In this document: piece after piece, positions 1,294 to 31,052 of the stretch | Position numbering within the stretch: position 1 is the first letter of the stretch | Layout: every line of letters starts with the position of its first letter | Assembly (NCBI RefSeq): GCF_035084215.1 | Contig: NC_090328.1 | Coordinates: forward strand, 74,896,001 to 74,960,000 | Direction of reading: 5' to 3' | Length of the DNA: 64,000 nucleotides | Origin: Heptranchias perlo | Lineage: Eukaryota | Position numbers and translations under genes: made by a program | The notes under the pieces: generated by a model | What the model was told of the DNA's origin: nothing | Seen by the model: only the letters and a program-made list of their open reading frames with translations | The model's database searches: none

Positions 1294-1309
1294 TTCCATA
1301 AGGGTACGG

Positions 1310-1384
1310 TAGCATAGTGGTTATGTTACTGGACAAGTAATCCAGAGGCCTGGACTGATAATCCAAAGTCATGAATTCAAATCC
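1310..1384 (+). promoter_or_regulatory. Internal RNA polymerase III promoter (A box and degenerate B box)
   Basis: TAGCATAGTGG at 1310-1320 fits TRGCNNAGYGG. GAATTCAAATCC at 1373-1384 is close to GGTTCRANNCC. Confidence 0.7.
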
Positions 1385-1705
1385 CACCATGGCAGCTGGG
1401 GAATTTAAATTCAATTAAATAAAAATCTAGAATTAAAAAAAATAGTATCAATAATGAAACCATGAAACTACCGGATTGTCGTAAACACCCATCTGGTTCA
1501 CTAATGCCCTTTAGGGAAGGAAACCTCCCAATATTACCCGGTCTGGCCTATATGTGACTCCAGCAATGTGGTTGATTCTTAATTGCCCTCTGAAATGGCC
1601 TAGCAAGCCACTCAGTTGTACAATCTCGCTACAGAAAGTCACAATAAGAATAAAACTGGACGGACCACCGGACACGACAAAGGCAAACCAAGCCCAGTCG
1701 ACCCT

Positions 1706-4458
1706 GCAAAGTCCTCCTCACGAACATCTGGGGACTTGTGCCAAAATTAGGAGAGCTGTCCGACAGACTAGCAACAGCCTGACACAGCCATACTCACAGA
1801 ATCATACCTTTCAGCCAACGTCCCAGAATCTTCAATCACCATCCCTGGGTATATTCTGTCCCAACGGCAGGACAGACTCAGCAGTGGTGGTGGTACAGTG
1901 GTATACAGTCAGGAGGGAGTGGCCCTGGGAGTCCTCAACATTGACTCCAGACCCCATGAAATCTCATGGCATCAAGTCAAACATGGGCAAGGAAACCTCC
2001 TGCTTAATACCACCTACTGCCATCCCTCAGCTGATGAAACACTGAGGGTAGCAAGGGCACAGAATGTACTCTGGGTGGGGGACTTCCATGTCTATCACCA
2101 AGAGTGGCTCAGTAGCACCACTACTGACCAAGCTGGCCGAGTCCTGAAGGACAAAGATGCCAGACTGGGCCTGAGGCAGGTGGTGAGCGAACCAACATGA
2201 GGGAAAAACATACTTGTCCTCACCAATCTACCTGTTGCAGATGCATCTGTCCATGACAGTATTGGTAGGAGTGACCACTGCACAGTCCTTGTGGAGACAA
2301 AGTTCCGTCTTCACACGGAGGACACCATCCAACGTGTTGTGTGGCACTACCACCGTGTTAAATGGGATAGATTCAGAACAGATCTAGCAGCTCAAAACTC
2401 GGCATCCATGAGGCACTGTGGGCCATCTGTAGCAGCAGAACTGTATTCCAGCACAATCTGTAACTCATGGCCCAGCATATTCCTCACTCTACCATTACCA
2501 ACAAGCCAGGGGATCAACCCTGGCTCAATGAAGACTGTAAAAGAGCATGACAGGAGCAGCACCTGTTGTATCTAAAAGAGGTACCAACCTGGTGAAGCTA
2601 CGACACAGGACTACATGCATGCTAAACAGCAGAAGCAACATGCTATAGACAGAGCTAAGCGATTCCACAACCAACAAATCAAATCAAAGCTTTGCAGTCC
2701 TGCCACATCCAGTCGTGAATGGTGGTGGACAATTAAACAACTAATGGGAGGAGGAGGCTCCGTGAACATCCCCATCCTCAATGATGGCAGAGGCCAGTAA
2801 GTGATTGCAAAAGACAAGGCTGAAGCATTTGCAACCATCTTCAGCCAGAAGTGCCAAGTGGATGATCCATCTCAGCCTCCTCCTGATATCCCCACCATCA
2901 CAGAAGCCAGTCTTCAGCCAATTCGATTCACTCCACGTGATATCAAGAAACAGTTGAGTGCACTGGATACAGCAAAGGCCATGGGCCCCGACAACATCCC
3001 GGCTCTAGTGCTGAAGACTTGTGCTCCACAACTAGCAGCGCCTCTAGCCAAATTGTTCCAGTACAGCTACAACACTGGCATCTACCCGACAATGTGGAAA
3101 ATTGCCCAGGTATGTCCTGTCCACAAAAAGCAGCACAAATCCAATTTGGCCAATTACTGCCCCATCAGTCTACTCTCAATCATCAGCAAAGTGATGGAAA
3201 ATGTCGTTGACAGTGCTATCAAGCGGCACTTACTCACCAATAACCTGCTCACCGATGCTCAGTTTGGGTTCCGCCAGGACCACTCAGCTCCAGACCTCAT
3301 TACAGCCTTGGTCCAAACATGGACAAAAGAGCTGAATTCCAGAGGTGAGGTGAGAGTGACTGCCCTTGACATCAAGGCAGCATTTGACAGAGTATGGCAC
3401 CAAGGAGCCCTAGTAAAACTGAAGTCAATGGGAGTCAAGGGGAAAACTCTCCAGTGGCTAGAGTCATACCTAGCACAAAGGAAGATGGCAGTGGTTGTTG
3501 GAGGCCGATCATCTGAACCCAAGGACATTGCTGCAGGAGTTCCTCAGGGAGTGTCCTAGGCCCAACTATCTTCAGCTGTTTCATCAATGACCTTCCCTCC
3601 ATCATAAGGTCAGAAATGGGGATGTTCGCCGATGATTGTTCAGTTCCGTTCGCAACCCCTCAGAAAATGAAGCAGTCCGTGCCCACATGCAGCAAGATCT
3701 GGACAACATCCAGGCTTGGGCTGATGTGTAGCAAGTAACATTTGCGCCAGACAAGTGTCAGGCAATGGCCATCTCCAACAAGAGGGTCGAACCACCTCCC
3801 CTTGACATTCAACGGCATTACTATCACCGAATCCCCCACCATCAACATCCTGGGGGTCACCATTGACCAGAAACTTAACTGGACCAGCCACATAAAGACA
3901 GTGGCTACAAGAGCAGGTCAGAGGCTGGGTATTCTGCGGCGAGCGACTCACCTCCTGACTCCCCAAGGCCTTTCCACCATCTACAAGGCACAAGTCAGGA
4001 GTGTGATGGAATACTCTCCATTTGCCTGGATGAGTGCAGCTCCAACAACACTCAAGGAGCACGACACGATCCAGGACAAAGCAGCCAGCTTAATTGACAC
4101 CCCATCCACCACCCTAAACATTCATTCCCTTCACCACCGGTGCACCGTGGCTGCAGTGTGTACCATCTACAGGATGCACTGCAGCAACTCGCCAAGGCTT
4201 CTTCGACAGCACCTCCCAAACCCGCGACCTCTACCACCAAGAAGGACAAGGGCAGCAGGCACATGGGAACAATACCACCTGCATGTTCCCCTCCAAGTCA
4301 CACACCATCTCGACTTGGAAATATATCGCCGTTCCTTCATTGTCGCTGGGTCAAAATCCTGGAACTCCCTACCTATCAGCACTGCGGGAGAACCTTCACC
4401 ACACGGATTGCAGCGGTTCAAGAAGGTGGTTCATCACCACCTTCTCAAGGAGTATTAG
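1706..4458 (+). pseudogene. Frameshifted APE endonuclease-reverse transcriptase ORF of the tRNA-headed LINE
   Basis: ORF pieces 1898-2200, 2291-2575, 2615-2800, 2801-3559 and 3742-4458 are collinear EN-RT-C-terminal domains broken by stops and indels. Confidence 0.9.
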
Positions 4459-4527
4459 GGATGGGCAATAAATGCTGGCCTTGCCAGCGACGCCCACATC
4501 CCATGAACGAATAAAAAAAGAAATAGT

Positions 4528-4900
4528 CTATACTGGAGGGAATACAAGCCCAGTCTATGCAAGTCCTCCTAACTTAACCCTCCAAGCCCCGATATAATTA
4601 TGGTGAATCTGTATTGTACCCCCTCTAAGGCCAAAATATCCTTCTCGAGGTGCTGTGCTCAGAACAGGAGGCAGAAGTCATGGAGGCGGTCTAATCAGAG
4701 CTCTATACAACTGTAGTATAACTTCCTCCCCTTTGTATTCCAGCCCCCTTGAGATGAAGGCTAACATCCCATCAGCCTTTCTGATTATTTTTTGTACCTA
4801 TCCATGAGTTTTTAGTGATTTCTGTACATGGACCACTAAATCTCTCTGCTCCTCCACACTTCCTAACTTCTCGCCATATTTTGCTTAAGCATTTTGACCT
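4528..4900 (-). mobile_element. CR1 LINE continuation (right part of the split copy)
   Basis: Sequence gggaatacaagccc... resumes where 1293 stops, judged by comparison with the uninterrupted homologous copy at 33580-33700. Confidence 0.75.
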
Positions 4901-14690: not shown

Positions 14691-15296
14691 TTAAATACTG
14701 TGGCTACAAGAGCAGGTCAGAGGCTGGGTATTCTGTGGCAAGTGACTCACCTCCTGACTCCCCAAAGCCTTTCCACCATCTACAAGGCACAAGTCAGGAA
14801 TGTGATGGAATACTCTCCACTTGCCTGGATGAGTGCAGCTCCAACAACACTCAAGAACCTCGACACCATCTAGGACAAAGCAGCCCGCTTGATTGGCACC
14901 CCATCCATCACCCTAAACATTCACTCCCTTCACCACTGTGGCTGCAGTGTGTACCATCCACAGGATGCACTGCAGCAACTCGCCAAGGCTTCTTCGACAG
15001 CACCTCCCAAACCCACGATCTCTACAATCTAGAAGGACAAGAGCAGCAAGCACATGGGAACAACACCACCTTCACGTTCCCCTCCAAGGAAAACACCATC
15101 CTGACTTGGAAATATATCGCCGTTCCTTCATCGTCGCTGGGTCAAAATCCTGGAACTCTCTACCTAACAGCACTGTGGGAGAACCTTCACCACATGGACT
15201 GCAGCGGTTCAAGAAGGCGGCTCATCACGACCTTCTCAAGGGCAATTAGGGATGGGCAATAAATGCTGGCCTTGCCATGAACGAATTTTTAAAAAA
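14691..15296 (+). mobile_element. 5'-truncated copy of the tRNA-headed LINE family
   Basis: Matches 3893-4519 (VATRAGQRLGIL...SKSWNSLP). Ends GAATTTTTAAAAAA. Confidence 0.92.
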
Positions 15297-28260: not shown

Positions 28261-29653
28261 TTTTTAAAAAATTCGTTCATGGGATGTGGGCGTCGCTGGC
28301 GAGGCCAGCATTTATTGCCCATTCCTAATTGCCCTTGAGAAGGTGGTGGTGAGCCGCCTTCTTGAACCGCTGCAGTCCATGTGGTGAAGGTTCTCCCACA
28401 GTGCTGTTAGGTAGGGAGTTTCAGGATTTTGTCCCAGCGACGGTGAAGGAACGGTGATATATTTCCAAATCGGGATGGTTGGTGACTTGGAGGGGGAACA
28501 TGCAGGTGGTGTTGTTTCCATATGCCTGCTGCCCTTGTCCTTGTCCTTCTAGATGGTAGAGGTCACGGGCTTGGGAGGTGCTGTTGAAGAAACCTTGGCG
28601 AGTTGCTGCAGTGCATTCTGTAGATGGTACACACTGCAGCCACTTTGTTGTCGGAGCTGCACTCATCCAGGCAAGTGGAGAGTATTCCATCACACTCCTG
28701 ACTTGTGCCTTGTAGATGGTGGAAAGGCTTTGGGGAGTCAGGAGGTGAGTCACTCGCCGCAGAATACTCAGCCTCTGACCTGCTTTGTAGCCACAGTATT
28801 TATGTGGCTGGTCCAATTAAGTTTCTGGTCAATGGTGACCCCCAGGATGTTGATGGTGGGGGATTCGGCGAAGGTAATGCTGTTGAATGTCAAGGGGAGG
28901 TGGTTAGACTCTCTCTTGTTGGAAATGGTCATTGCCTGGCACTTGTCTGGCACGAATGTTACTTGCCACTTATCAGCCCAAGCCTGGATGTTGTCCAGGT
29001 CTTGCTGCATGAGGGCAATGACTGCTTCATTTTCTGAGGGGTTGCGAATGGAACTGAACACTGTGCAATCATCAGCGAACATCCCCATTTCTGACCTTAT
29101 GATGGAGGGAAGGTCATTGATGAAGCAGCTGAAGATGGTTGGGCCTGGGACACTGCCCTGAGGAACTCCTGCAGCAATGTCTTGGGGCTGAGAGGATTGG
29201 CCTCCAACAACCACTACCACCTTCCTTTGTGCTAGGTATGACTCCAGCCACTGGAGAGTTTTCCCTCTGATTCCCATTGACTTCAATTTTACTAGGGCTC
29301 CTTGGTGCCACACTCGGTCAAATGCTGCCTTGATGTCAAGGGCAGTCACTCTCACCTCACCTCTGAAATTCAGCTCTTTTGTCCATGTTTGGACCAAGGT
29401 TGTAATGAGGCCTGGAGCTGAGTGGTCCTGGCAGAACCCAAACTGAGCATCGGTGATCAGGTTATTGGTGAGTAAGTGCCGCTTGATAGCACTGTCGACG
29501 ACACCTTCCATCACTTTGCTGATGATCGAGAGTAGACTGATGGGGCGGTAATTGGCCAGATTGGATTTATCCTGCTTTTTGTGGACAGGACATACCTGGG
29601 CAATTTTCCACATTGTCAGGTAGATGCCAGTGTTGTAGCTGTACTGGAACAGC
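28261..29653 (-). mobile_element. Nested 5'-truncated copy of the tRNA-headed LINE family
   Basis: ORF 28768-29613 is nearly identical to the RT at 3092-3920. The 3' end reads GAATTTTTTAAAAA on the minus strand. Confidence 0.93.
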
Positions 29654-30312
29654 TACAATAATAATAGACTTGTCAGCAAAATGAACGCCCATGAGATTAA
29701 AGGGACAGTGGCAGCTTGGATACAAAATTGGCTAGGGGACAGACAGCAGAGAGTAGTGGTGAATGGTTGTTTTTCAGACTGGAGGGAAGTTTACAGTGGT
29801 GTCCCGCAGGGGTCAGTATTAGGACCACTTCTCTTTTTGATATATATTAATATCCTGGACTGGGGTATACAGGGTAAAATTTCAAAGTTTGCAGATGACA
29901 CGAAACTCAGAAATGTAGTAAACAGTGTGGACGATAGTTACAGACTTCAGGAGGACATAGGCAGACTGGTGAAATGTGCAGACACATGGCAGGTGAAATT
30001 TAACGCAGAGAAGTATGAAATGATACATTTCAGTAGGAAGAATGAGGAGAGGCAATATAAACTAAATGTAGAATTTTAAAGGGGATGGTGGAACAGAGAG
30101 ATCTGGGGGTGCACATGCACAAATCTTTGAAGGTGGCAGGACAAGTTGAGAAGGTTGTTAAGAAAGCGTATGGGATCCTGGGCTTTATTAATAGAGGCAT
30201 AGAATACAAAAGCAAAGAAGTTATGCCAAACCTTTATAAAACACTGGTAAGGCCTCAGCTGGAGTATTGTGTTCAATTCTGGGTACCACACTATAGGAAA
30301 GATGTCAAGACC

Positions 30313-31052
30313 ATCTCCAACAAGAGAGAGTCTAACCACCTCCCCTTGACATTCAACGGCATTACTATCGCCGAATCCCCCACCATCAACATCCTGGGGG
30401 TCACCATGGACCAGAAACTTAACTGGACCAGCCATATAAATACTGTGGCTACAAGAGCAGGTCAGAGGCTGAGTATTCTGCGGCGAGTGACTCACCTCCT
30501 GACTCCCCAAAGCCTTTCCACCATTTACAAGGCACAAGTCAGGAGTGTGATGGAATACTCTCCACTTGCCTGGATGAGTGCAGCTCCAACAACACTCAAG
30601 AAGCTCGACACCATCCAGGACAAAGCAGCCAGCTTGACTGGCACCCCATCCACCACGCTAAACATTCACTCCCTTCACCACCGGCGCACAGTGGCTGCAG
30701 TATGTACCATCCACAGCAACTCGCCAAGGCTTCATCGACAGCACCTCCCAAACCCACGACCTCTACCACATAGAAGGACAAGAGCAGCGCGTACATGGGA
30801 ACAACACCACCTGCACATTCCTCTCCAAGTCACACATCATCCCGACTTGGAAATATATCGCCATTCCTTCATCGTCGCTGGGTCAAAATCCTGGAACTCC
30901 CTTCCTAACAGCACTGTGGGAGAACCTTCCCCACACGGACTGCAGCGGTTCAAGAAGACGGCTCACCACCACCTTCTCAAGGGCAATTAGGGATGGGCAA
31001 TAAATGCCAGCCTCGCCAGCGACGCCCACATCCCATGAACGAATTTTTTAAA
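30313..31052 (+). mobile_element. Nested 5'-truncated copy of the tRNA-headed LINE family, with TSD
   Basis: Matches 3771-4519. AAGACC is duplicated at 30307-30312 and 31053-31058. Ends GAATTTTTTAAA. Confidence 0.93.

Follow-up and report, generated by a model that had tools for sequence, protein, structure and literature searches.

The window analyzed here is a stretch of 64,000 nucleotides of the Heptranchias perlo genome (assembly GCF_035084215.1, contig NC_090328.1, forward-strand positions 74,896,001 to 74,960,000), and coordinates refer to it unless element nucleotides (nt) are named. Near its start lies a long interspersed element (LINE) with a tRNA-like head which, judged by its sequence, is the known elasmobranch Zenon, a family already published (PMC13343379). 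An earlier note on this DNA read it as a hybrid of a short interspersed element (SINE) and a LINE, whose message for an endonuclease (EN) and a reverse transcriptase (RT) is made by RNA polymerase III (Pol III), with its terminators purged. We favor, with a probability of roughly 0.65, a Pol III-transcribed autonomous LINE that is translated without an AUG from about 1628–1640. The features of the element, some of them common to an older sister SINE, are as follows.

1302–4519, + strand: decayed full-length copy of elasmobranch Zenon, a LINE of the CR1 group with a family length of about 3.3 kb
1302–1396, + strand: tRNA-derived head, Thr(AGT)-like, with the anticodon-arm segment duplicated
1310–1320, + strand: A box, TAGCATAGTGG; each position kept in 45–51 of 52 copies
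1373–1384, + strand: B box; GAATTCAAATCC in the window copy, damaged at 1375, and GAGTTCAAATCC in the family
1402–1445, + strand: AT-rich linker, 95% AT, mostly 24–46 nt, partly duplicated in the youngest subfamily
1475–1620, + strand: conserved non-coding leader core, common to the sister SINE; near-invariant in five elasmobranch species (by eye)
1590–1615, + strand: anticodon-arm-like hairpin with the 7-nt loop CU-AGC-AA, overlapping an ATG-GCC-TAG mini-frame at 1595–1603
1628–1630, + strand: GCT in frame, candidate for a codon mimic or for the first codon of an AUG-independent start
1628–4458, + strand: single open reading frame (ORF) with a basic N-terminal extension, an apurinic/apyrimidinic endonuclease (APE) domain at about 1708–2290, RT at about 3130–3870 and a C-terminal domain; frameshifted in the window copy
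4413–4519, + strand: 3′ tail (stem-loop and A tail), common to the sister SINE, 91% identity to the SINE tail; fold z −2.8

The genome searched comprises 3.25 Gb and holds at least 5,346 copies with the leader/ORF junction, counted as exact matches to a 25-nt junction pattern. A majority sequence of 3,296 nt was derived from 28 copies with a mean divergence of 3.7%. With a query of the head plus EN, 40 of 40 scored matches spanned both parts over nearly the whole query, and 27 of 39 other loci spanned both ends of the element, with a common 5′ start and unrelated flanks. This set was selected by the head, and two of its 27 end-spanning loci are one duplicated insertion; two samples independent of head selection were added. 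When the EN alone served as the query, 20 of 29 other loci extended to nt ≤20, and the other nine had no common alternative 5′ sequence. Among the first 100 junction loci in genome order, 98 continue into the ORF, two are SINE-like internal deletions, and 68 begin at nt ≤25. Full-length copies thus share one 5′ start at the head, which is fused to the LINE family-wide rather than adjacent by chance at this locus, and the EN-selected copies show no common alternative 5′ end. Family copies have a poly(A) tail, and no target-site duplication of ≥6 nt was found in any of the 22 copies tested.

The head aligned with a tRNA-Thr(AGT) of the same genome with a score of 55, compared with 27.6 ± 5.5 for shuffled sequences (maximum 49 of 1000). 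This tRNA was located with a head-derived pattern, so the isotype was not independently chosen. Rfam tRNA matches were weak (22 bits, E about 1, two of four loci), and neither ARAGORN nor Rfam called a tRNA in the window head. The A box and the B-like box lie where the earlier note had placed them, and the A box fits the consensus TRGCNNARYGG. In the family B box, each position is kept in 46–52 of 52 copies, and the G that is damaged in the window copy is present in 46. With the A box near +9 and the B box downstream, the head has the layout of a type-2 Pol III promoter.

Published Zenon consensuses (PMC13343379) were compared by eye. All seven elasmobranch consensuses, from five species, begin with the head and leader, and three of them carry the B box GGTTCGAATCC. 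Three hagfish and coelacanth consensuses have no head, unrelated 5′ ends and TTTT within the first 400 nt. No convincing match to the head was found in distant relatives at 79 metagenome loci, many of them 5′-incomplete; one weak match had E = 0.02. Relaxed ARAGORN runs on these loci gave four calls, none at ORF 5′ ends as far as inspected. The head is likely an elasmobranch addition gained in the shark-ray ancestor, because the hagfish, coelacanth and moth Zenons, in the parts of the sources available, lack it.

The sense strand of the element is depleted of T runs. Between 1302 and 4519, it has no run of four or more T, alongside 18 such runs of A, 11 of C and 7 of G. Four further Zenon fragments in the window, which belong to three copies, one of them split in two, likewise lack TTTT, and a neighboring CR1 has 9 with 8.2 expected. 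The earlier note had read these features correctly, namely the missing TTTT here and in the other copies, the common AAAA and the presence of TTTT in the CR1, and its rough expectation of about five TTTT is near the 4.3 computed by base shuffling for the majority sequence, which has none (P = 0.011). Its remark that TTT is frequent was mistaken: the window copy has 12, and the majority sequence has 7 with 21 expected (0 of 5000 shuffles). Within the ORF, TTT occurs 5 times, with 12.2 expected from a shuffle of its own codons (P = 0.003) and 19.2 from codons drawn by base frequency (0 of 5000). For TTTT, 2.0 (P = 0.10) and 3.8 (P = 0.013) are expected under the same two nulls and none is seen, and under a first-order Markov null, P is 0.037 for TTT and 0.13 for TTTT.

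The depletion extends to related patterns. None of the 23 codons starting with TT has a T directly before it (P = 0.002), the near-terminators TTTVT and TVTTT are absent with 6.7 expected, and the 95%-AT linker contains TTTT in one of 56 full-length copies scored. Runs of A, C and G are not significantly depleted. Phe makes up 2.0% of the ORF, a value as low in only one of 139 relatives. The control set consisted of 53 related ORFs of ≥450 codons among the 79 metagenome loci; their z scores have a mean of −0.03, a standard deviation of 1.3 and a minimum of −3.3, and none of them lacks TTTT. With z = −4.3, the Zenon element is an outlier among these LINEs.

The majority sequence has only one EN-RT frame, in agreement with the earlier note's claim that ORF1 is missing. 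The frame has 967 codons from stop to stop, and its first Met is codon 281. It matches PF03372, PF14529 and PF00078 in Pfam, and the catalytic motifs of the majority protein are intact. The EN begins with KVLLTNIWGL at 1708, as had been read before. Its nearest relatives have 33–41% identity, two of them being named as moth and amphioxus proteins, and shark protein fragments match the ORF at 68–82% identity (16 matches in a word-index protein search). Public shark gene models (P0001, P0006, P0014 and P0015) hold fragments of the ORF as exons; they are probably annotation artefacts.

The frame is under selection as protein and has no usable in-frame AUG. Shared variants fall at third codon positions in 23 of 34 cases. 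The earlier note had found no obvious in-frame ATG just upstream of the EN; there is one at 1595–1597, but a TAG at 1601–1603 follows two codons on. A second in-frame stop, TAA, lies six codons past ATG-GCC-TAG, just before the ORF, in 87 of the 100 sampled copies, and the upstream ATG is therefore not simply read through. The variants shared among 27 TAA-bearing copies comprise 31 synonymous and 22 non-synonymous ones, compared with 240 and 605 for singletons (P = 2e-5). Lineages that would need two read-throughs from that ATG thus still made protein. In 21 TAC-bearing copies, the shared variants are 29 synonymous and 33 non-synonymous.

The end of the leader offers a candidate start. The hairpin at 1590–1615 appears in all five minimum-energy folds that cover the site, and its loop is unchanged in six of the seven published elasmobranch consensuses. 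GCTA follows after a variable linker of 6–7 nt in all seven, and it stands at the same site in contig loose ends from runs of four other organisms. In the first consensus of four of the five species, the frame from GCT to the EN is preserved across both a −2/+2 shift and a deletion of 3 nt. The loop AGC is able to pair with the in-frame GCU. Among 100 copies, the loop reads CTAGCAA in 53, CCAGCAA in 22, CGAGCAA in 9 and CAAGCAA in 3. The variable base is the first of the TAG (window 1601, element nt 311), which is T, C, G or A across subfamilies; the old SINE is invariable there. Misincorporation at a modified base was rejected as the origin of this variation, given that no signal was seen at the equivalents of tRNA positions 34 and 37 and that the old SINE does not vary.

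HDV-like (hepatitis delta virus), twister and hammerhead ribozymes were also rejected for the leader, which gave partial look-alikes by eye, no full topology and no Rfam match. One such look-alike is a stem at element nt 230–243 (window about 1528–1541) with 3 bp and a UCCUUACC loop, which resembles HDV P3/L3 or twister P4/L4 alone. Its inner pair is G-C, G-U or A-U among species and is the sole covarying pair seen.

In the mechanism that we propose, TFIIIC and Pol III would read the internal A/B promoter, and Pol III would run about 3.3 kb to the A tail, presumably because terminators have been purged. The presumably uncapped RNA would recruit ribosomes via the conserved leader, and translation would start internally and independently of AUG near GCU-ACN (1628–1633), at the 3′ edge of the leader. 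More speculatively, the loop AGC may pair with GCU as an anticodon–codon mimic, like domain 3 (PKI) of the dicistrovirus intergenic region (IGR) internal ribosome entry sites (IRESs). The Zenon protein would bind the 3′ stem-loop and copy the RNA by target-primed reverse transcription. Assembled contigs, from presumed RNA runs of several organisms, cover the element and are uninformative on strand, start and polymerase. From the patterns described above, a non-AUG start of the ORF appears highly probable and Pol III transcription probable, while the IRES-type mimic is a doubtful model. We regard it as rather unlikely that all parts combine, with a 3.3-kb Pol III transcript, an IGR-IRES-like pseudoknot and a non-AUG EN-RT forming a vertebrate type 6-like initiation kept since the shark-ray split.

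The points that weigh against our reading, in its transcription and in its translation, are given here together with the alternatives. Zenon could be transcribed by Pol II or by host read-through; the head would then be a passenger, or a signal for processing of the RNase P type, and the T poverty a matter of composition or ancestry. The precise 5′ end at tRNA position 1 would fit processing as well as Pol III initiation. The absence of TTTT, which the earlier note had stressed, is not significant given the element's own codon use (P = 0.10) or its depletion of TT (P = 0.13); the statistics are carried by the TTT signal. TTVTT is not depleted (2 with 3.6 expected, P = 0.30), and the Phe codon TTC is preferred no more than other C/T-ending codons (P = 0.19). 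The control ORFs are distant (24–48% identity) and T-richer than the Zenon ORF, and a CR1 ORF of the same genome is also somewhat low (z −1.7; TTTT 9 with 12.2 expected). The T fraction of the element, 0.194, is the lowest of 54 ORFs; given this overall poverty in T, base composition in general is a conceivable cause. Persaeus, which has a moth Zenon 5′ end, shows no tRNA homology and no Pol III boxes in the available text of PMC6740152, so the clade default would not be Pol III. However, five species retain the A and B boxes, and the depletion is T-specific on the sense strand, reaches TTT, TTTVT and the linker, and is absent from the 53 related ORFs. We consider transcription by Pol II or host read-through rather unlikely. 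The head-bearing element might instead be a non-autonomous chimera, a SINE that captured an ORF and owes its mobility to a conventional Zenon, which acts in trans and has a different 5′ end. The older SINE shares the head, body and tail (11% compared with 3.7% mean divergence), and no fully intact copy was found among the loci examined, the longest family frame having 776 codons. However, the EN-selected set has no alternative 5′ end, the ORF is under purifying selection in head-bearing lineages, and the head is on all seven published elasmobranch consensuses. Moreover, the two young internal deletions among the 100 sampled loci indicate that the observed direction is from long to short. The chimera is thus largely refuted and very improbable.

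A start at an AUG is a further alternative, which we consider rather unlikely. Translation could begin at ATG-GCC-TAG (1595) with stop read-through or reinitiation, or at an ATG at majority nt 276 whose 70-codon frame would enter the ORF by a −1 frameshift in the A-rich tract. The former, ATG305 in element numbering, is in frame in this family and in four published species, has a strong context and is followed by UAG-CAA; in 18 of 53 aligned copies, the first base of its stop differs. In the RhiTyp consensus, as published, it falls outside the frame, and the copies with the second stop have an ORF that is still under selection; reinitiation at a non-AUG codon after the two-codon frame is conceivable. 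In the majority sequence, the −1 frame from nt 276 stays open for 70 codons. However, it stops early in HypSab, RhiTyp and SquAca-1, a canonical slippery heptamer is missing from the commonest subfamily (65 of 100), and six other ATGs lie upstream. A start at GCU has difficulties of its own. Among the published consensuses, SquAca-1 has the GCT frame displaced by one and SquAca-2 and SquAca-3 have it broken, and within-genome selection on the N-terminal extension is weak, with 4 synonymous and 5 non-synonymous variants (3/6 and 2/7 in the other frames). The folding energy of the hairpin is unremarkable (z −0.29 to −0.85). Its pseudoknot with GCU would have 3–4 pairs only, shows no compensatory change, and involves a loop whose U is variable. 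No Rfam IRES match, no PKII/PKIII, no L1.1 or SLIV/SLV motifs and no convincing nested pseudoknot in the helix list were identified in the leader, for which no dedicated pseudoknot search was made. The hybrid reading of the earlier note survives in the family-wide head, the single selected AUG-less ORF and the outlying T-run depletion, but not in its use of the missing ORF1, a lack that is reported as normal for every Zenon element surveyed (PMC13343379) and does not speak for Pol III.

The sister SINE, represented by 30 loci (L100–L129), is a tRNA-headed element of about 440 nt. Its majority sequence matches nt 1–330 of the LINE at 89% and the last 107 nt at 91%; the two have the same ends. 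The LINE, with 3.3 kb and a selected ORF, lies outside the definition of a SINE as short and non-coding. Long-to-short conversion is ongoing: in the two young deletions (L252:285–734 and L317), nt about 351–357 are joined to the tail, in L252 via a short shared word. No match of the sister SINE to a named SINE family was found in a comparison that did not include Repbase or Dfam, and a prior name for it or for the head may exist. Identity of the leader body with Deu-SINEs or SacSINE1 was rejected, because the Deu-SINEs of this genome are a separate family without significant similarity (20 of 1,210 exact motif matches examined, L130–L149). These 1,210 matches mark an abundant Deu-domain tRNA-SINE, probably of the SacSINE1 type. 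UCON3 and Meta showed no resemblance to the leader body by eye.

T-runs stand directly before the A tails (TTTTAAAA) in L034, L035, L042, L047, L063 and many SINE copies, more often in older ones. Counted by eye, about 7 of 28 long copies have two or more T before the A tail, as do about 14 of 30 copies of the older SINE. They were rejected as remnants of a Pol III terminator, because they increase with age and similar changes occur at T/A boundaries elsewhere, which points to mutation after insertion.

Of 32 truncated copies in the genome-order sample, seven (L244, L256, L271, L272, L277, L303 and L315) have their 5′ truncation at element nt 201–209 (window about 1499–1507; Poisson P about 7e-4 after 32 windows). 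A pattern test across the genome, itself imperfect, yielded 12 matches at nt 203, five of them short deletions, leaving about seven with unrelated flanks, compared with three or fewer at nt 250. The cluster, which lies about 138 nt before GCU, may reflect a stop of the RT or a 5′ end made by RNA processing.

The window copy itself is dead, with 13 indels and 5.5% divergence from the majority sequence. It is inserted in an older CR1-like fragment of the opposite strand (912–1301 and 4537–4877). Three further copies of the family lie in the window.

14692–15277, + strand: 5′-truncated copy of the same Zenon family; 91% identity, no TTTT
28271–29651, − strand: 5′-truncated Zenon copy split in two pieces; 90–93% identity, no TTTT
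30311–31044, + strand: 5′-truncated Zenon copy; 91% identity, no TTTT

Elsewhere in the genome, a CR1 copy (L038:2643–5201) lies inside a Zenon copy; it belongs to a young CR1 lineage, and its frame of 853 codons is still open where the retrieved sequence ends.

In the usual working division, LINEs are protein-coding, autonomous and transcribed by Pol II, and SINEs are non-coding, dependent and transcribed by Pol III. A long-lived, high-copy vertebrate family that is apparently both LINE- and SINE-like would, if the reading is true, break this division. It would provide a natural Pol III-made messenger and a testable case for the translation of uncapped, AUG-less RNA, and a single internal deletion is a direct route from LINE to SINE. 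The compact single-ORF element is suited to retrotransposition assays. Should the IRES-like fold prove correct, it would be relevant to the debated occurrence of such elements beyond viruses. The family and its lack of ORF1 are already known; the head, the T-run depletion and the AUG-less frame are real and unusual, and the Pol III mechanism is what we infer from them.

R2, RTE and Ingi elements have a single ORF and HDV-like ribozymes, are processed from Pol I or Pol II transcripts, and are translated independently of a cap. Zenon resembles them in the lack of ORF1 and in its probably unconventional initiation, whereas a complete HDV or twister topology cannot be drawn for it. Over the first 400 nt, the part compared, the element matches the published elasmobranch Zenon consensuses, and both have a length of about 3.3 kb, the head, the leader, an A tail and no ORF1. 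Zenon has been reported in five elasmobranch species (CarCar, HypSab, RhiTyp, ScyCan and SquAca; Stuart et al. 2026, PMC13343379), where all Zenon elements surveyed have a single APE-EN and RT ORF, no ORF1 and an A tail, and elasmobranch Zenon is mentioned in bioRxiv 10.1101/443036 as well. In the main text of PMC13343379, none of the terms 'tRNA', 'polymerase III' and 'start codon' occurs, and T-run depletion, the AUG-less frame and the sister SINE are not among the passages of that paper available. The family had thus been described, while no description of a Pol III-transcribed autonomous LINE was found in a literature search that lay outside Repbase, Dfam and most subscription journals.

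Non-elasmobranch Zenon and its derivative Persaeus (PMC6740152) likewise have a single EN-RT ORF, a poly(A) tail and internally deleted short derivatives. The tRNA-SINEs with LINE tails, such as the Deu-SINEs SacSINE1 and LmeSINE1 (PMC5499810), share the arrangement of a head with A and B boxes, a conserved body and a LINE tail. SINEs derived from bipartite LINEs also join a tRNA head to a LINE-derived tail, but Zenon differs in encoding its own enzyme; the same source, in the part available, treats LINEs as Pol II units and states that SINEs are unable to encode protein (PMC5786205). Pol III transcripts have been reported to retrotranspose without ORF1p, which the Pol II version requires (PMC2666806). 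The occurrence of IGR IRESs in non-LTR (long terminal repeat) elements has been raised as a possibility only (PMC3894237). Compared with the IGR (type 6) IRESs of dicistroviruses, the Zenon leader has 3–4 pairs, no Rfam match and no identified PKII/PKIII, L1.1 or SLIV/SLV. However, the leader core has a similar size, and on the Zenon side, where the pairing is predicted only, it would be alike in a non-AUG start by GCU/ACN and in an upstream hairpin loop that pairs with the start triplet (PMC10275262).

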